This document shows, in pieces, positions 527 through 10,771 of a DNA stretch of 13,399 bases. Positions within the stretch are counted from its first letter, which is position 1. Every line of letters begins with the position of its first letter. The stretch is taken from the UHGV virus genome UHGV-0349718; one strand, 5' to 3'. Both the position numbers and the translations under genes were made by a program. Under the pieces are notes generated by a model, which saw only the letters and a list, made by a program, of their open reading frames with translations, was not told where the DNA came from and did not search any database. This DNA is from a virus.

Positions 527-910
527 TCAATTACACCTGCCAACTTCAGGATCCATCTCAAGACGCACTCCCAATGCCATCAACATCCCCTCGACTATTC
601 CTTCGGCCTTCTGAAGTCTTTTGCCTATATATCCATCAGAACAATAATGCTTACGGGCCAGTGCCATAAACGTCATTCCTCTTACGTAATAATCCACCAG
701 CAAATCATGCAAATCACTGTCGTTCTTTTTCAGGCGAGCCATACACCCACAAATAACCATTGCATCATCATCACTACATTGCGGACGTGATTTAACCTTT
801 GGTGGAATAAGCCCCTTGAATCCGGCGGCAATAGATGGCCAGGTAACATCCTCGTGGTTATTTGCCACCCATGCCCCCCAACGCTCAAGAACCATCTGAA
901 TATCACGCAT
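527..910 (-). CDS. Late-gene antitermination protein Q (phage 82 / QuuD-like family)
   Basis: 127-aa ORF starting [14 protein letters not shown]... with Cys-rich core ([16 protein letters not shown]) typical of Q antiterminators; ATG at 910 overlaps the stop of the upstream gene by 1 nt. Confidence 0.8.
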
Positions 911-1167
911 CAGCGCAGTACCTCCTGCACCAGCTTTTCAAACCTTCCAACTTTGGTTTCCAGCTCTGCCACACAATCCACCAGCTCATCCACTGCTTTT
1001 TGTGCGCGGTGTTTCGCCTGCATCAGTTCCCTGAGCGCCGGCACCATATCCCGACGAATGGCATCTTTTGTTACACCCGTCTTTTCCAGTTGTTCAGCAT
1101 GACGCAACATTTCCTGTGCCTGTTTACGTAATTGTTCAGGGGTAAAAGGTATTGTCTGGTTGTTCAA
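910..1167 (-). CDS. Hypothetical phage protein (85 aa, predicted coiled-coil); apparent TTG start
   Basis: ORF between helicase and Q; first codon is TTG overlapping the helicase TGA (TTGA), with GGAG 8 nt upstream. No recognisable domain. Confidence 0.5.
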
Positions 1168-2555
1168 AAGAAACGCTCCATCTTACTGCTGTCAGTTCGT
1201 TTGTTGCTGTATCTGCGCGGCTGGGATGGCCGCATTGGGGTGGAAAGAACCTGTGCGCTTTCCTGGTCTACGGGCAGAAAATGTCCATTATAAAAACGCC
1301 GGTAAATCGTCCCCAGAGAACCGTTACGTTGTTTCGTGATATTGATTTCCGCGATACCCCTGGCCTGCGTATCCGGGTTGTATACTTCATCCCTGTAAAG
1401 CATCAGAATGATGTCCGCATCCGCCTCTATTTCTCCGGAATTTTTCAGATCTGAGTTCATGGGACGTTTATTAGGTCTGGATTCCACACCGCGGGAGAGC
1501 TGGCTCAGCGCAATTAACGGAAAACCACCTGATTTTGCCAGGCCTTTAAGCCCTTTTGATATTTCACCCACGGCAAGGTCATGACGACCTGTGGTTCGGG
1601 TTTTTATCAGTCCGAGATAATCAACCACCACCAGCGCCGTTTCCGGATGTTTAATCAGGTGGTGTTTCGTTGTTGCACATATCTCATCAATGGTCAGGTT
1701 CGCCTGGTCCACCATCCAGATATTGCGCCCGGTCATCCGCCCCACTCCTTGTGAGAAACGTGCCCAGTCTTCGTCTTCAAAGTGAGTGACAGATTTCAGG
1801 CGTGATACCGGCATTCCTCCAGCCGCAGATACCATGCGTTCACCAATCTGGATGTTCGCCATTTCCATTGTGAACAGAAGAACATCATGCCCCTGCTCAG
1901 TCACCTTGTCGATGATATCCAGCGCCAGTTCGGTTTTGCCCATTGACGGACGAGCCGCAATGAACACCAGGTCGCCGGGTTCCATGCCGCCTGTTTTTGC
2001 GTCCAGTTCATCAATACCGGTCATCAACGCCCTGGATTTCTCCAGCCCCTGATTCCGGCATTCAACACGCTCAACCACCTCCGGAAGCACATCATCAATA
2101 TGTATCGGCTGAATAATGCCCTTTTCCGTCGACAATGAAGCCATCATGTTCTGCGCATCCTTCAGGGCATCTTCAGCTGCTTCACAGGTATGCGCATCAC
2201 GTAATTTCTGCAGCGCCTCATTCAGTGTTTTTTCTGCATCACGCAATGCAGCATTGCGCCGTAACGCTGCAACATAGTGCTCCAGTGAAGACTTCACCCA
2301 GGTTTTACGTCCGGTGTCGGTAATCACCGGGGCTAGTTCCGGCATCTCATTGCACAGCAGCACAGGATCAATCACACCTGAAACACGGGCCTGTCTGCAG
2401 ATGCCTGTGTAGATATCCCGATACGCTCGTACAGAAAAAACGTCCGCCGGTAGTGTGGCCAAAATATCCATCACTTCATGATCTGTCCCTCGCAGAAAGA
2501 ACGCGCCAATGACAGCACCTTCCAGGTCATCGTTACGCCAGACTGGTGTTGTCAT
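1164..2555 (-). CDS. Replicative DNA helicase, DnaB-like
   Basis: Walker A in ...FIAARPSMGKTELALD... plus DnaB-type C-terminal RecA-like domain motifs. ATG at 2555 preceded by GAGGTG 7 nt upstream and overlapping the upstream stop (ATGA). The ORF-track N-terminal extension to 2663 is discounted. Confidence 0.9.
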   Translation of the reverse strand: MTTPVWRNDDLEGAVIGAFFLRGTDHEVMDILATLPADVFSVRAYRDIYTGICRQARVSGVIDPVLLCNEMPELAPVITDTGRKTWVKSSLEHYVAALRRNAALRDAEKTLNEALQKLRDAHTCEAAEDALKDAQNMMASLSTEKGIIQPIHIDDVLPEVVERVECRNQGLEKSRALMTGIDELDAKTGGMEPGDLVFIAARPSMGKTELALDIIDKVTEQGHDVLLFTMEMANIQIGERMVSAAGGMPVSRLKSVTHFEDEDWARFSQGVGRMTGRNIWMVDQANLTIDEICATTKHHLIKHPETALVVVDYLGLIKTRTTGRHDLAVGEISKGLKGLAKSGGFPLIALSQLSRGVESRPNKRPMNSDLKNSGEIEADADIILMLYRDEVYNPDTQARGIAEINITKQRNGSLGTIYRRFYNGHFLPVDQESAQVLSTPMRPSQPRRYSNKRTDSSKMERFF

Positions 2556-3430
2556 GCAGCCACACCTCTGATACGAGAACGGTAGCTGGGCCAGTTGAAC
2601 GACAACCAGTTGCGCCCCCCGTCTGTGATCCTGTCGGCAATGCGGGGGCTGATGAACGCCCACAACTCTTCCGGTGAAAGGTTGCTGATCAGGATGGTGG
2701 GCAGGATACTTTCGTACCGGGCATTGATAATTTCCTGCAAAATAGCCATTTCAGCCGCGCTGCCAAACTGAACACCAACTTCGTCGATGATCAGCAAATC
2801 CATTGACGCATAATGCTCAATAACTTCATCCGCTGTTTTTTCGCTGTCATTCCGCCAGCAGTTTTTCACAGCACGGGTAAGACGCATCACGTCGGTGATC
2901 TCCACACTGGCCAGATAGTTACGGATGATGTGTTTTGCCATTGATACCGCCAGATGATTTTTCCCGGTTCCGCAACTACCGGTCATAACAAGACTGGTAC
3001 CGTTCTCCAGCATATCTGGCCAGTTCTCCGCATAGCGGCGACAGGCTGCAAGATTTCTGGCCGCGTCAGGATTAACCTCCAGATAATTATCAAACTCGCA
3101 GTCCCGAAAACGCAGGGCAATTCCGGCGTTATCAGTCAGCTCTTCCGCCTTGAGGGACGACAACTCCATGGTCAAATCGTTGGCCTCAGCGATCAAGCAG
3201 TCAGGGCAGCATGAAATTTTTTCTCTGTCCTCGCCATTACGATCGCTCCACACCAGTATATGCGTACTGTATTTACCGTGTTTTTCGCAATATCCGCGAC
3301 CTTCGCGCATCAGGCAGGAACGATAAGGCCATGGCTTTTCGCCCTTCTGAGCAAATGCAATCTCTGCCCGTAACTCATCCATTTGCGCCTGTAGTCTTTT
3401 TTGTTGTTCACACAGGTTAAACGTCATCAT
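2552..3430 (-). CDS. DnaC/IstB-like AAA+ ATPase (putative helicase loader) with Cys-rich N-terminal region
   Basis: Walker A GSCGTGKNHLA and Walker B LLIIDEVG; N-terminal CxxxxC...CCPDC cluster. ATG at 3430 with GAGGTG 7 nt upstream; the ORF-track start at 3439 is a GTG. Confidence 0.8.
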   Translation of the reverse strand: MMTFNLCEQQKRLQAQMDELRAEIAFAQKGEKPWPYRSCLMREGRGYCEKHGKYSTHILVWSDRNGEDREKISCCPDCLIAEANDLTMELSSLKAEELTDNAGIALRFRDCEFDNYLEVNPDAARNLAACRRYAENWPDMLENGTSLVMTGSCGTGKNHLAVSMAKHIIRNYLASVEITDVMRLTRAVKNCWRNDSEKTADEVIEHYASMDLLIIDEVGVQFGSAAEMAILQEIINARYESILPTILISNLSPEELWAFISPRIADRITDGGRNWLSFNWPSYRSRIRGVAA

Positions 3431-3440
3431 CGCTGCCACC

Positions 3441-4265
3441 TCAGAATGTCAGTTTGTCACTGGATTTACCGAATTTGTCAGACATGGCTCCCAGGCCAGC
3501 CAGGACATCGACCTGTCGCTGTCGCCCACCTCCGGGAGCGGCTGGCTGTTGCCAGAAGTCTTCGAAGTGACGATCGGGTCCAAAGAACGTCGCTGCCTGC
3601 TTCACGAACTGTGTGCCGGTATTTCCTGTAGCACGTACCCAAGCGGCATAACGTCTCACACCATCAAGCATGGTCTCCGGTTTTATTCCCTCCCTGAGAC
3701 GGGCTTTCCAGGCTTTGAAGGCTGCCGACTTGGAATTACCACCAGCACGTTTGGGATATTCCTGCCAGGCCTGTTCAAATTCTGGTGAATATTCCTGTCG
3801 GGCAGAGCGCGCTGGTGCAGACGCGTCAGCGGATGCGCCAATTGTTGGTTCATTGACTGGTTCTTTGACTGGTTCAAAAGAGTGACTGGTTCTGGGTGAA
3901 TCTCCTGCACTACCCCCTAGTGCAACTCCTGCACTACCTAGTGAATCTGCTGCACTAGGTAGTGAATTATTTGCACTACCCCCTGGTGAATCTTTTACAC
4001 CATCAAGGCGAAGGAGATAAATATTGCTCGAATTCCCTTTTTCACCTTTCCGGGAAACTTTTTTTACCAGCCCGGACTCGCAAAGCGCTGCGATATGATT
4101 CATCACAGAACGTTTACTGATTTCGCACTGATCAGCGATATGCTGGTAACTTGGCCAGCACTCCCCCTGATCGCTGGCATTATCCGCCAGCTTAACCAGA
4201 ACAAGTTTTCGCAATGGATTCCCCACACGAATTTTCATCGCTTTAACCATCAGCTCCATGCTCAT
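3441..4265 (-). CDS. Phage replication initiation protein (O-like; N-terminal winged-HTH replication domain, low-complexity linker, conserved C-terminal domain)
   Basis: N-terminus NPLRKLVLVKLADNASDQGECWPSYQHIADQCEISKRSVMNHIAALCESGLV resembles HTH replication-initiator domains; sits immediately upstream of the loader and helicase; iteron-like repeats lie inside the linker-coding part. GGAGGT 5 nt upstream of the ATG. Confidence 0.7.
   Translation of the reverse strand: MSMELMVKAMKIRVGNPLRKLVLVKLADNASDQGECWPSYQHIADQCEISKRSVMNHIAALCESGLVKKVSRKGEKGNSSNIYLLRLDGVKDSPGGSANNSLPSAADSLGSAGVALGGSAGDSPRTSHSFEPVKEPVNEPTIGASADASAPARSARQEYSPEFEQAWQEYPKRAGGNSKSAAFKAWKARLREGIKPETMLDGVRRYAAWVRATGNTGTQFVKQAATFFGPDRHFEDFWQQPAAPGGGRQRQVDVLAGLGAMSDKFGKSSDKLTF
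3853..3994. repeat. Iteron-like direct and inverted repeats inside the initiator gene (candidate phage origin of replication)
   Basis: TGACTGGTTC three times (3854, 3866, 3883); TGCACTA(C/G) four times (3906, 3930, 3951, 3973); GTGAAT four times; perfect 12-bp inverted repeat CACTACCTAGTG (3932-3943) / CACTAGGTAGTG (3953-3964); moderately AT-rich stretch at 4011-4070. Confidence 0.6.
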
Positions 4266-4486
4266 AGAGCACCTCCCAGGCGTTTAAACATTTTTCCGGA
4301 CTGAAACGCCATCAACGGATAGCTAATGGTGTAGTTACGCCCCAGTAATTCACACACAACTTTCTGGCTTTCGGTACTGACCAGGCAAACCCGCAGAACG
4401 TGACCGTTGCTGGTGGCAAACCACTGCCCCACACGGGGGCAACGGTTGTATCGGTGATACAGAGAATTCACAACGCGACGAATCAT
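4262..4486 (-). CDS. Hypothetical phage protein (74 aa)
   Basis: ORF with GGAGGT 5 nt upstream of the ATG; ATGA overlaps with both neighbours. No recognisable domain. Confidence 0.5.
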   Translation of the reverse strand: MIRRVVNSLYHRYNRCPRVGQWFATSNGHVLRVCLVSTESQKVVCELLGRNYTISYPLMAFQSGKMFKRLGGAL

Positions 4487-4677
4487 GGGCGCACCTCCGC
4501 CGTAGTGATGTATTTAACCGGACTGCCTTTCATTGCGATGGTTTCACACATCTCCGCTGCTTTACGTTCCGCTGTTTTCCTAGATTTATAGCGGCGGTGC
4601 CAGACAGACGTATCCGTGCGAACTGATACATCGTTTCTGTATTCAGTTGTGGAAATAATAATTTCGTAACTAATCAT
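4483..4677 (-). CDS. Hypothetical phage protein (64 aa)
   Basis: ATG at 4677 overlaps the stop of the 220-aa gene (ATGA), with GGAGGT 6 nt upstream; the track ORF begins 5 codons earlier at 4692. Confidence 0.5.
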   Translation of the reverse strand: MISYEIIISTTEYRNDVSVRTDTSVWHRRYKSRKTAERKAAEMCETIAMKGSPVKYITTAEVRP

Positions 4678-5336
4678 GGACGCACCTCCCATTGATTACG
4701 GCGGAAAGCGGTGTGATTCAGGTTAGTTTCTGCCTCATGGAATGCTTCAATACAGCTCTCGTAGTACCGCATTGTGCGGAGACTTAACCCAAGCTGAAGC
4801 ATCATCAAACCATCAAGGGTGATGTAATAACCATGCAGAGAATCACCATAGATGTGATAAGTACCCGGTATGAAATTGCAGGTAAAAAATTCGCGCGAGC
4901 AGTTCAGATACTCGATTTTGTCGACGATGTTCTGGTGCATGCGCTTGAAATGACAGGCAACATGCAGAGAGAAAATAACGGCCTTGCCGTTGACGACTTC
5001 GATTTTGAGAAATGGGGAAGTTGGGACAGTAGCCATGATGGCAGCCTCCTTGAGCAGTGAAAAACTTCCACCACCGGAGGTTCCAAGCTCGCTGGTGGCG
5101 GACTGAACAGGGTTGGAACTACCGGCGCTCAAGGAAACCGGCGAGCCTTTCGGCTCCCCTGCCCAGCCCACCATAATTCTGGCGTGCGCGAGCATGGACG
5201 ATAAAAAAGACGCTGGCGCGTCGTATATCGCCTCGAGCAATTCCGGGGTTCCAATCCCGGCACCCGCTTTATAAGGTGCGGAGACAGTGTAACGTCCCGA
5301 AATTGCAGAATCAATATTTAGGCTTGAAACATTCAT
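4674..5336 (-). CDS. Hypothetical phage protein (220 aa) with a Ser/Gly-rich low-complexity linker
   Basis: Long ORF heading the overlapping chain; weak SD; central stretch SAGSSNPVQSATSELGTSGGGS. No recognisable domain. Confidence 0.5.
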   Translation of the reverse strand: MNVSSLNIDSAISGRYTVSAPYKAGAGIGTPELLEAIYDAPASFLSSMLAHARIMVGWAGEPKGSPVSLSAGSSNPVQSATSELGTSGGGSFSLLKEAAIMATVPTSPFLKIEVVNGKAVIFSLHVACHFKRMHQNIVDKIEYLNCSREFFTCNFIPGTYHIYGDSLHGYYITLDGLMMLQLGLSLRTMRYYESCIEAFHEAETNLNHTAFRRNQWEVRP

Positions 5337-6614: not shown

Positions 6615-6857
6615 TCACTCCTCCCCCGTGTGCGCTAAGCTTGGGTGTGGGAAAAGCTCTGGTAGATCTGGACGAAATTCATACGATTGGATCTTTCCGT
6701 CGACAGCTGCAACCAATAACGGCACAAATTCGGGTGAAATCTTGTTCTTGCAGTTAAGCCAATCACAGACTGTTGATTGAGCCTTTCCGCATCGCTTGGC
6801 TAAGGCTTGTTGGCTCCCAAGAATCTCAATGGCTTTTTCTATAGCTTTATGTTTCAT
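6615..6857 (-). CDS. cro: Cro-like HTH transcriptional regulator (80 aa)
   Basis: HTH motif ...GSQQALAKRCGKAQSTVCDWLN...; divergent from the CI-like repressor; ATG at 6857 with AGGAG 8 nt upstream (track ORF starts further upstream at 6929). Confidence 0.7.
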   Translation of the reverse strand: MKHKAIEKAIEILGSQQALAKRCGKAQSTVCDWLNCKNKISPEFVPLLVAAVDGKIQSYEFRPDLPELFPHPSLAHTGEE

Positions 6858-6976
6858 AATCGCATCTCCTATTGACGACATATTATCAATAGGTAAATCG
6901 ATATTCAACGTTAAACCTAGAAGTTTCATCGGAAAGCCGATAAACTGCCCAACATAGAGAGGAGAGGAAGATCACA
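6858..6976. promoter_or_regulatory. Divergent cI-cro control region (OR-like): operator palindrome and PR-like promoter
   Basis: Palindrome CCTATTGA-N10-TCAATAGG (6868-6893). On the minus strand, -35 TTGAAT (6908-6903), 17-nt spacer, -10 TAATAT (6885-6880), overlapping the palindrome. Strong SD GGAGAGGAAG precedes the cI ATG at 6977. Confidence 0.6.
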
Positions 6977-7669
6977 ATGACATTTTCAGAACGACTTGAT
7001 TTAGCTATGCGCAACGCCAAATTTACGCAAGGCAGGCTGGCCAAAGAAGTAGGTATGGCCCAGTCAAGCGTCAATCAATTACTTAACAAAGCCAACGGTT
7101 CCAGGAAAACAGTTGAAATAGCAAAAGTTTTGGGCGTTAACCCGGAATGGCTCGCATCTGGTGTCGGTCCAATGGAAATCGAGACCTCTGCAGACTCACA
7201 CCAAATACGTAACATTTCAGAAGACAGGATTACTGATTCGTATGTCGTGGATGTTTTAGACATCAGATACAGTTGCGGGCCTGGTAGTTATAACTCTGAT
7301 TTTCCAGACATTGTCAGATCTATAGCGATAGAACCAGGATACGCATCAAGAGTTTTTGGCGGCAGACCAGCATCAGCAATCAAAGCAATAAACGCCCACG
7401 GCGACAGCATGAAAGGCACAATAAACCCTGAGGACTTGGTGTTTGTTGACGTATCAGTTCGCTCATTTAATGGCGATGGTATATACGCTTTTACATACTC
7501 TGGAACATCGCACATCAAAAGGCTTCAAAAAATCAAAGACACCCTAACAGTGATCTCAGACAATCCAGCTTACAAAGATTGGGCTATCGAACAAGATGAC
7601 TTCGAGCAACTTCACATTGACGGAAAAGTAATCGTAAGTTGGCCTATGACGCTACACCGTTTCGCATAA
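6977..7669 (+). CDS. cI: CI-type prophage repressor (N-terminal HTH, C-terminal LexA-like S24 autopeptidase domain)
   Basis: N-terminal HTH (...FTQGRLAKEVGMAQSSVNQLL...); C-terminal Ser in AHGDSMKG and Lys in SHIKRL, the S24 catalytic dyad pattern; divergent to cro. Confidence 0.9.
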   Translation: MTFSERLDLAMRNAKFTQGRLAKEVGMAQSSVNQLLNKANGSRKTVEIAKVLGVNPEWLASGVGPMEIETSADSHQIRNISEDRITDSYVVDVLDIRYSCGPGSYNSDFPDIVRSIAIEPGYASRVFGGRPASAIKAINAHGDSMKGTINPEDLVFVDVSVRSFNGDGIYAFTYSGTSHIKRLQKIKDTLTVISDNPAYKDWAIEQDDFEQLHIDGKVIVSWPMTLHRFA

Positions 7670-9947: not shown

Positions 9948-10771
9948 AAAAAATTATTTTTGCTTTAGCCATTATTCTGCCGACCATTAGCCTTGTCGGG
10001 TGCGATCGCGTTGAACCAGGTAATGTTGGCATCAAGGTAAATAAACTGGGCAACGACAAAGGCGTCGGTGAGGTGGTCGGTGTTGGTCGCTACTGGACTG
10101 GCTGGAATACTGAGGTTTACATCTTCCCTACCTTCAAGCAAATGAAGACCTACGATGAACCATTCAGTTTCCAGATGAGTGACGGTACAACCATCGGCTA
10201 TCACATCGGCGTGGCCTACAAAGTTGATCCATCCAAAGTTACCACGGTGTTTCAGACTTACCGCAAAGGCGTGGATGACATTACCGACACCGACCTGCGC
10301 CAGAAGATCGCCGACGCACTCAACCGACTGGCCAGCAAAATGACCACCGACAAATTTATCGACGGCGGCAAGTCTGAACTGCTGGATGCTGCTCTTAAAG
10401 ACATTCAGGCAGAAATGACACCCATCGGTATTCAGGTAATGAGCCTCTCATATGTAGGTAAACCGGAGTACCCACCAACCGTTATCGACAGCATTAATGC
10501 CAAAGTCACGGCAAACCAGAAAACCCTGCAACGCGAGCAGGAAGTAAAACAGCGCGAAGCGGAAGCCAACATGCTGCGCGCGGAAGCTGCCGGACAGGCT
10601 GATGCGATTCGCACAAAAGCCCAGGCCGAAGCCGATGCTATTCGTTTACGCGGTGAAGCTCTGCGCCAGAACCCTGGAGTTATGGAACTGGAAGCCATCA
10701 ATAAATGGAACGGCACACTGCCGCAATACATGACCAGCGGCGCCAATACGCCATTTATCCAGGTTAAATAA
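9944..10771 (+). CDS. SPFH/band-7 (HflK/C-, flotillin-like) domain lipoprotein
   Basis: Signal peptide with lipobox LVGC (Cys20); SPFH-like core (NVGIKVN...GRYWTGWNTEVYIFPTFKQ...); Ala/Glu/Gln-rich coiled-coil tail (QREQEVKQREAEANMLRAEAAGQADAIRTKAQAEADAIRLRGEALRQ). Confidence 0.75.
   Translation: MKKIIFALAIILPTISLVGCDRVEPGNVGIKVNKLGNDKGVGEVVGVGRYWTGWNTEVYIFPTFKQMKTYDEPFSFQMSDGTTIGYHIGVAYKVDPSKVTTVFQTYRKGVDDITDTDLRQKIADALNRLASKMTTDKFIDGGKSELLDAALKDIQAEMTPIGIQVMSLSYVGKPEYPPTVIDSINAKVTANQKTLQREQEVKQREAEANMLRAEAAGQADAIRTKAQAEADAIRLRGEALRQNPGVMELEAINKWNGTLPQYMTSGANTPFIQVK

Follow-up and report, generated by a model that had tools for sequence, protein, structure and literature searches.

A probable replication origin inside the HTH_36 initiator gene of a lambda-like Escherichia coli prophage, with lineage-specific iterons and a conserved adjoining DNA block

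In a lambda-like E. coli prophage, the 13,399-nucleotide stretch of UHGV virus genome UHGV-0349718 analysed here (hereafter the window) makes up the early region, with complete coverage of the early-right part between cI and Q. Positions 3847-4002, inside the linker-coding part of the prophage's own initiator gene, very probably form its vegetative replication origin, judging from sequence comparisons. This segment holds five 19-bp dyad-symmetric units, or iterons, which strong indirect evidence points to as initiator-binding sites, and a 47-bp block that adjoins the last of them. An origin inside an initiator gene is textbook knowledge for lambda and P22 (PMC7466680), and phage biologists would expect the one reported here; what is new is the frozen block and a clean code relating recognition helix to iteron, both in a very common prophage family. 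Indeed, the initiator gene was matched in 1229 of 5426 complete E. coli genomes, and 5505 database proteins resemble its product at E ≤ 1e-10, under no better name than 'helix-turn-helix domain-containing protein'. The best database match to a protein of the window, at 98% identity, also came from E. coli. The features on which the argument turns are listed below; the iterons were located by a dyad pattern search.

3441-4265, minus strand: replication initiator gene, 274 residues (open reading frame; Pfam HTH_36, E 5e-11; phrog_270, E 5e-89; AlphaFold2 domains)
3984-4002, minus strand: iteron 1, TGGTGTAAAAGATTCACCA (gene strand)
3960-3978, minus strand: iteron 2, TAGTGCAAATAATTCACTA
3939-3957, minus strand: iteron 3, TAGTGCAGCAGATTCACTA
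3918-3936, minus strand: iteron 4, TAGTGCAGGAGTTGCACTA, with 7-bp perfect arms
3894-3912, minus strand: iteron 5, TAGTGCAGGAGATTCACCC, adjoining the conserved block
3932-3943 and 3953-3964, no strand assigned: perfect 12-bp inverted repeat, CACTACCTAGTG / CACTAGGTAGTG (sequence check)
3847-3893, minus strand: conserved block, gene strand AGAACCAGTCACTCTTTTGAACCAGTCAAAGAACCAGTCAATGAACCA (synonymous-site conservation in 90 homologues)

The unit KRGTG-N9-CACYM, whose gene-strand form is T(A/G)GTGCA-N5-ATTCAC(T/C)A, occurs five times at 3894-4002 where 0.12 occurrences are expected; none of 200 shuffles gave five, and the dyad pattern search found no further copy elsewhere in the 13.4-kb window. 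The units are spaced by 24, 21, 21 and 24 bp and all share one codon phase. An earlier note on this DNA, which had proposed a candidate origin embedded in the initiator gene, had drawn attention to TGCACTA(C/G) and GTGAAT, four copies of each. These are found at 3906, 3930, 3951 and 3972 and at 3896, 3941, 3962 and 3986, respectively, and they turn out to be the two arms of the 19-bp unit. The perfect 12-bp inverted repeat that it had reported is also present, and is made up of arms of iterons 4, 3 and 2 that face each other, together with the CC/GG spacers. Tandem Repeats Finder detected only two strong tandem arrays in the window, one of period 21 at 3896-3967 (score 82) and one of period 12 at 3846-3876 (score 55).

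In the AlphaFold2 model of the initiator, built on a 25-sequence alignment, residues 1-88 form a winged-helix N-domain (predicted local distance difference test, pLDDT, 76-90) with the recognition helix at 51-64 and the wing at 67-85. The linker, at about residues 89-159, is predicted to be disordered (pLDDT below 50 over residues 91-159), and is followed by a helical C-domain (160-234) and a disordered tail. The iterons encode residues 88-124, between the winged helix and the C-domain, and iterons and block together encode residues 88-137, so that both lie in the linker. The low-complexity linker location given in the earlier note was thus correct, and the peptide repeat EPVKEPVNEP that it had read there is present in the translation.

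Repeats in such a place could be a coding tandem repeat and nothing else, a Gly/Ser/Ala/Pro linker expanded by replication slippage in DNA without a role in cis, and indeed they are in frame as 7-residue units, encode the predicted disordered linker, and differ between close homologues by whole 7-residue units. However, we regard this as highly improbable. Each unit is an internal palindrome, like the lambda iterons, which selection on a peptide repeat would not yield and does not need, and serine is encoded by AGT in the left arm and by TCA in the right arm, which indicates that the palindromy is set by the DNA and not by the peptide. Furthermore, as detailed below, the half-site shifts with the recognition helix even though the linker remains Gly/Ser/Pro-rich, unrelated N-domains have unrelated repeats at the same place, and the synonymous sites of the adjoining block are frozen.

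It is scarcely credible, in our view, that the dyads act as RNA hairpins in the initiator mRNA, affecting translation, stability or transcription termination. A stem of 5-7 bp with a loop of 5-9 nt can be drawn for each unit and neighbouring units are mutually complementary, but a scan of 3400-4400 gave no promoter-like or terminator-like site and the origin region matched no Rfam family, and RNA and promoter readings were therefore set aside. In addition, arm positions 2 (A/G) and 18 (T/C) vary independently and not as compensating pairs (an appearance of compensatory changes between the arms when SfV was compared with the window disappeared with more sequences, and was not used), and the covariation that does exist is with the protein recognition helix.

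This covariation supports the iterons as initiator-binding sites. The comparison set consisted of relatives of the N-domain at 50-75% identity from 11 phages and 80 bacterial species, with Pseudomonas, Shewanella, Marinomonas, Xenorhabdus, Photorhabdus and Aeromonas among the genera sampled. All of these diverged relatives have 2-7 dyad repeats directly after the winged helix, with a half-site that differs by lineage. Across the roughly 90 homologues, from many Gammaproteobacteria, the half-site tracks the 8-mer of the recognition helix, with one class per 8-mer, as follows.

Recognition helix xRSV(M/I/Q)(N/S/T)H: half-site RGTG(C/A)A
Recognition helix RSTVK(S/V/L)H: half-site GGGGCRG
Recognition helix RSTVR(K/R)H: half-site TGTAGGC
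Recognition helix KSAV(R/K)xH: half-site TRTGCC
Arg at helix position 7: half-site GTGAC or GTGTC

The pairing of Arg at position 7 with GTGAC was found in four backgrounds (loci L130/L138, L088, L095 and L096), whose nearest relatives outside the helix all belong to the RGTGCA class; in L130 and L138 the helix is that of the window with a single Asn-to-Arg change. On the evidence of these alignments, the covariation between half-site and helix includes convergent changes.

The N-domain and the repeats also travel together. While the N-terminal 87% of the initiator gene is common to SfV, mEp460, cdtI, the Shiga toxin (Stx) 2 phages and many others (megablast), other E. coli prophages share only 3441 to about 3846 of the window and have another N-domain and another repeat set at the same place. 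In the Stenotrophomonas phage BUCT708 (locus L094, 1201-2184), an N-domain, iterons and block of the window type are fused to a C-domain like that of P22 gp18 (E 3e-17), and a DnaB-like helicase gene follows the initiator gene; this fusion shows that the origin-recognition modules of the window type and of P22 are interchangeable. The pattern found is that of iterons and N-domain as one specificity module, exchanged together. As for copy number, the repeats occur in all close homologues, with 5 to about 9 iterons that differ in steps of 21 bp and 7 residues (+1, +3 and +4 units). The earlier note had named the absence of the repeats from close homologues as a finding that would count against its proposal, and the homologues examined did not bear this out. 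Thus the earlier note's proposal of an iteron-type origin within the initiator gene is backed by comparative evidence, namely palindromy, helix covariation, module swaps, the BUCT708 fusion and the presence of the repeats in all close homologues.

Several further observations concern the repeats and their variants. In alignment A2 the proteins P0022, P0024, P0026, P0031, P0034, P0073, P0084 and P0102 are copy-number variants, and the number of EPVK/GAACCAGTCA units also varies (P0020, P0066 and L079). Two E. coli prophages in which other N-domains stand on the same C-domain (L002 at 1904-2083 and L003 at 1911-2085) likewise contain two sets of repeats, ordered as in the window: a short set with a period of 12-24 bp (GGTTCATGTTTTRAA twice, TAMTCTCTG four times) adjoins the C-domain junction, and longer dyad-containing units lie further in, so that the layout of iterons plus short repeats is general. 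The initiator N-domain is also carried by 32 'plasmid' records, most of them phage-sized circles of 38-48 kb, including ten in Arsenophonus nasoniae. The E. coli plasmid record L298 (NZ_CP148393.1) is circular and resembles the phages SfV and CPS-53; it encodes an integrase, and the initiator is its sole recognisable replication gene. Such records may be excised prophages, and they lend weak support to autonomous replication.

The 47-bp block comprises three copies of GAACCAGTCA plus a partial copy. These are the three copies of TGACTGGTTC that the earlier note had counted, at 3883, 3866 and 3854, each containing a CTG, and the only near-match elsewhere in the window, with one mismatch, is at 10157. 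A 28-nt core, AGAACCAGTCACTCTTTTGAACCAGTCA, is exact at 3866-3893, directly after the last dyad repeat, and recurs in 89 of 92 homologues, where it differs at no more than 4 positions; all 120 exact core matches in viral contigs fall within this HTH_36 initiator gene family. Indeed, CCAGAACCAGTCACTCTTTTGAACCAGTCAAnGAACC after the last iteron is nearly unchanged while iterons, C-domains and helicase partners vary, and the block is kept base-for-base in prophages of hosts as different as Vibrio, Shewanella, Pseudomonas and Enterobacteria. When we compared codons at conserved residues, mean pairwise codon identity was 0.90 in the block and 0.40 in the N-domain (51 columns, maximum 0.70; Mann-Whitney p 1.3e-5). 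The codons are AGA for Arg (85/85), AGT (85/86) and TCT (80/82) for Ser, GTC for Val (81/84) and GAA for Glu (87/87). GC content at third codon positions (GC3) is about 0.29 in the block throughout, against 0.28-0.91 in the N-domain across homologues, and the block as a whole remains at about 41% GC regardless of host composition. Codon comparison thus shows the block to be under purifying selection at the DNA level.

Its position on the promoter-distal side of the iterons, as in lambda, its low stability and this DNA-level selection lead us to infer that the block is an unwinding or helicase-loading site. No other 40-bp window of the gene is less stable than the block in 41 of 88 homologues, and in the window positions 3840-3893 have 38.9% GC, compared with 51% for the gene and 46.7% for the window. 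The earlier note had also pointed to a moderately AT-rich stretch next to the repeats, which corresponds to 4003-4070, on the other side of the iterons. The composition bias there is real but weak (39.7% GC), and we found no DNA-level constraint: this part of the gene codes for the wing, and synonymous sites vary in it as much as they do in the rest of the N-domain. It was rejected as the better candidate for the unwinding site. By analogy, the counterpart of the lambda AT-rich tract would be the TGACTGGTTC block and not 4003-4070.

The block could also owe its conservation to another cause. It might be a recombination joint (28-47 bp) for the shuffling of N- and C-terminal modules, or it might encode a peptide, RTSHSFEPVxEP, that binds a conserved host protein. 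C-terminal modules do diverge right past the block, the E. coli module junction falling at about 3846-3853, and a conserved peptide in a disordered region is typical of short linear motifs. However, a peptide would leave unexplained the invariant rare codons AGA, AGT, TCT and GTC in Pseudomonas loci whose N-domain GC3 exceeds 0.65, and evolvability alone is a weak selective cause for identity from Vibrio to Pseudomonas. Both versions must also contend with the block's fixed contact with the last iteron and with the fact that in many cases no other segment of the gene is less stable, and we consider them rather unlikely.

A C-domain like that of P22 gp18 occurs in some family members (among L094, L163-L166, L167, L175 and L138), and in several of these loci we observed a CCCCC-TTA-CCCCC...GGGGG arrangement just past the block, as in the P22 rep_origin (L085, 4960-4990).

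We propose that winged-helix dimers of the initiator N-domain would each bind one 19-bp palindromic iteron. The spacing of 21-24 bp corresponds to about two helical turns, so that the iterons would face much the same way along the DNA, and the five bound dimers could together form an O-some-like complex. Stress from this complex would open the adjoining 47-bp block, and the initiator C-domain would then recruit the phage's own DnaC-like loader and DnaB-like helicase, encoded directly downstream. Alternatively, the iterons could be true initiator sites that serve control (autoregulation, transcriptional roadblock, titration or handcuffing) while the DNA is opened elsewhere in the prophage. Plasmid iterons also serve copy-number control, and in this window the block, a putative unwinding site, is not strongly AT-rich. 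Even so, this alternative is improbable: no other iteron or comparable repeat cluster lies in the 13.4 kb from cI to Q, the architecture is that of two lambdoid origins annotated inside initiator genes, and a DNA-conserved block of low stability always adjoins the last iteron.

Several points weigh against an origin at 3847-4002. Searches for DnaA-box and IHF consensus sequences found none near it, and searches of the accessible literature turned up no experiment on any family member. The initiator has no detectable homology to lambda O or to the N-domain of P22 gp18, so that the analogy with lambda and P22 rests on architecture. The helix-iteron covariation, with classes assigned by simple patterns, is partly confounded by shared ancestry. 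The block is no classical AT-rich unwinding element, having 39% GC in this window, where 15% of the gene's 40-bp windows equal or exceed it in instability and the least stable lies near 4025. A function as a short motif could also explain why the peptide RTSHSFEPV is conserved.

As to the protein family, the initiator matches PF13730 (HTH_36) above the cut-off and PHROG 270, 'replication initiation protein', and its N-domain contains the motif KLADNAxDxGECWPS, which is invariant in homologue alignment A1. HTH_36 was the only Pfam hit; PF04492 (Phage_rep_O), the family of lambda O, was not matched, whereas it was matched by lambda O itself (E 6e-36) and by P22 gp18 (E 7e-38). BLASTP found no similarity to lambda O or to P22 gp18, and hhalign gave a probability of 3.6% for lambda O, so that membership of Phage_rep_O was rejected. 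The lambda-like arrangement suggested in the earlier note therefore holds in that the iterons lie inside the initiator gene, but not in the sense that the initiator is a lambda O homologue. An iteron-plasmid Rep_3 protein was rejected as well (no Rep_3 hit, a single winged helix in the model, palindromic and not direct units), as was a DnaD-like primosomal protein: DnaD_N (PF21984) scored 23.4 bits, under the cut-off of 27, and the C-terminal 133 residues had no Pfam match even at E 10. A PDB sequence search returned noise hits to the low-complexity linker only, and a Foldseek search with the model gave generic winged-helix matches only (E at least 0.012), including a weak one to the DnaD-N structure 2v79 (E 0.028). 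No Pfam or NCBIfam family was found for the C-domain.

The last 25-35 residues of the initiator (window 3441-3550; columns 301-338 of alignment A2) exist in at least three unrelated versions among proteins that are otherwise 75-95% identical, and megablast identity of the gene to SfV-type phages ends at query position 112. This variable tail is probably partner-specific and matched to the downstream gene, which is a DnaC-like loader here and is absent from SfV.

The remaining genes of the window that bear on replication and its control are as follows.

2552-3439, minus strand: DnaC/IstB-like AAA+ helicase loader gene, directly downstream of the initiator gene (Pfam IstB_IS21, 4e-15; phrog_50; NCBIfam DnaC, 6e-38)
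1164-2555, minus strand: DnaB-like replicative helicase gene, likely start ATG at 2555 (Pfam DnaB_C, 9e-73; TIGR00665, 1e-92)
527-910, minus strand: antiterminator Q
6615-7669, no strand assigned: immunity region (Pfam Peptidase_S24/HTH and YdaS_toxin)
6977-7669, plus strand: cI-like repressor
6615-6929, minus strand: cro/YdaS-like gene

Downstream of cI/cro the minus-strand order is Rha/Ant-like, Ash/Rha-like, two small open reading frames, initiator, loader, helicase and Q, the initiator, DnaC-like and DnaB-like genes being contiguous. A rightward-operon transcript starting at the immunity region would be expected to cross the origin. The stop of the DnaC-like gene overlaps the likely start of the DnaB-like gene in an ATGA at 2552-2555, which suggests translational coupling of the two; the program-made list of open reading frames opens the helicase 108 nt too early (GTG 2663). 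Further upstream, Rfam matches above the gathering score were found on the minus strand for the C4 antisense RNA (84 bits, 5091-5178) and the Hfq-binding small RNA isrK (63 bits, 5203-5279), both within the 220-residue Ash/Rha-like reading frame at 4674-5336 (minus strand). They suggest either that an antirepressor switch of the P1/Gifsy type, controlled by RNA, precedes the replication genes or that the start of that reading frame is over-called. The highest AT content near the replication genes (27-32% GC in 40-bp windows) lies at 4620-4680, the junction of the small reading frame 4483-4692 with the Ash/Rha one, where no repeats were detected.

If the origin is correctly placed, the proteins of this family could be named initiators, with the internal origin annotated. 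The HTH_36 family includes the Stx-converting 'Eru' phages, for which the origin offers a concrete pair of cis-element and DNA-binding protein, and the replication level of Stx phages influences Shiga-toxin output. For a winged-helix initiator, the helix-iteron table amounts to a series of specificities provided by nature, and the frozen block is a candidate for a phage-origin site at which opening or loading depends on sequence. Chromosomes and plasmids have known sites of this kind; for lambdoid phages our literature searches gave none. The searchable literature, including that on SfV, ST64B and HTH_36, likewise gave no description of this origin or block, although one older replication-module review might have predicted it, and a search with the DNA and peptide motifs returned primer noise only. 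We would go further only tentatively, and with less than even confidence: the CCAGAACCAGTCACTCTTTTGAACCAGTCAAnGAACC block may be an undescribed sequence-specific element for origin opening or for helicase/primase entry, read as single-stranded DNA either by a conserved surface on initiators of this family or by a replication protein of the host that is itself conserved. The iterons beside it and the recognition helix would make up a simple, re-programmable recognition code. If so, the block would be the phage counterpart of DnaA-trios or plasmid 13-mers, and the Asn-to-Arg change at helix position 7, which would switch GTGCA to GTGAC, an example of the code.

The closest architectural parallels are oriλ in gene O and the corresponding origins of the Stx phages 933W and P27 (six iterons), where inverted-repeat iterons of 18-19 bp also lie about 20-24 bp apart in mid-gene. 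In oriλ, too, the iterons sit in the O linker, between the coding parts of a DNA-binding N-domain and a helicase-recruiting C-domain. The easily melted tract of oriλ adjoins the last iteron on the promoter-distal side, the position that the block has here. Lambda has four iterons and the Stx phages six, and the difference adds residues to the linker (PMC7466680); the variation from 5 to about 9 between relatives here parallels this. However, the N-domain here is HTH_36 and not Phage_rep_O, and the iteron sequence is unrelated. Where lambda has a 40-bp A-rich tract we found a sequence-conserved block of 39-43% GC with GAACCAGTCA repeats, and where lambda relies on P and the host DnaB, this phage has its own DnaC-like and DnaB-like proteins. 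In P22 the annotated rep_origin lies inside initiator gene 18 at the corresponding position, with four repeats followed by a tract with short direct repeats, and the phage encodes its own DnaB-like helicase (gp12). However, the N-domain of gp18 is Phage_rep_O, the repeats are ATCGGTAAAAC-like and not of the dyad type, and P22 has no DnaC-like loader. A resemblance to GAATCAGTCAAAC / GAACCAGTCAAAG in P22 was not used as evidence, its simplest explanation being the degenerate fourth repeat of P22 itself.

Iteron plasmids (RK2 TrfA, F RepE, pPS10 RepA) share winged-helix initiators and arrays of iterons of about 20 bp beside a repeat-bearing unwinding element. In RK2 and F the Rep protein reportedly reads the repeats of the unwinding element as single strands (Wegrzyn and colleagues, 2014). 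Precedents for a sequence-specific opening region exist in the DnaA-trios and in the 13-mers that TrfA and RepE read on plasmids, and by analogy the 13-mers would be the best precedent for one that is both conserved in sequence and repeat-bearing. However, the iterons of plasmids are direct repeats, each bound by a monomer that has two winged-helix domains, while the palindromic units here imply dimers of a single winged helix. The origin here lies inside the gene, and there is neither a Rep_3 domain nor a DnaA box here.

The nearest relatives by protein are the 'Eru' regions of Stx phages (Eru5, 6, 8, 11 and 13), whose HTH_36 proteins belong to the same family as the initiator and in which cI and the HTH_36 gene are separated by the same Rha/Ash genes. 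At 85% nucleotide identity, the initiator gene is matched by the reference phage of Eru6, Stx2a_WGPS2 (PMC8951638). The Eru papers classify genes only, call the replication proteins unknown and make no mention of iterons or an origin (PMC8951638). Since its initiator does not belong to Phage_rep_O, the origin described here is placed as a variant apart from the oriλ/P22 class, though one that would work like oriλ or the P22 origin.

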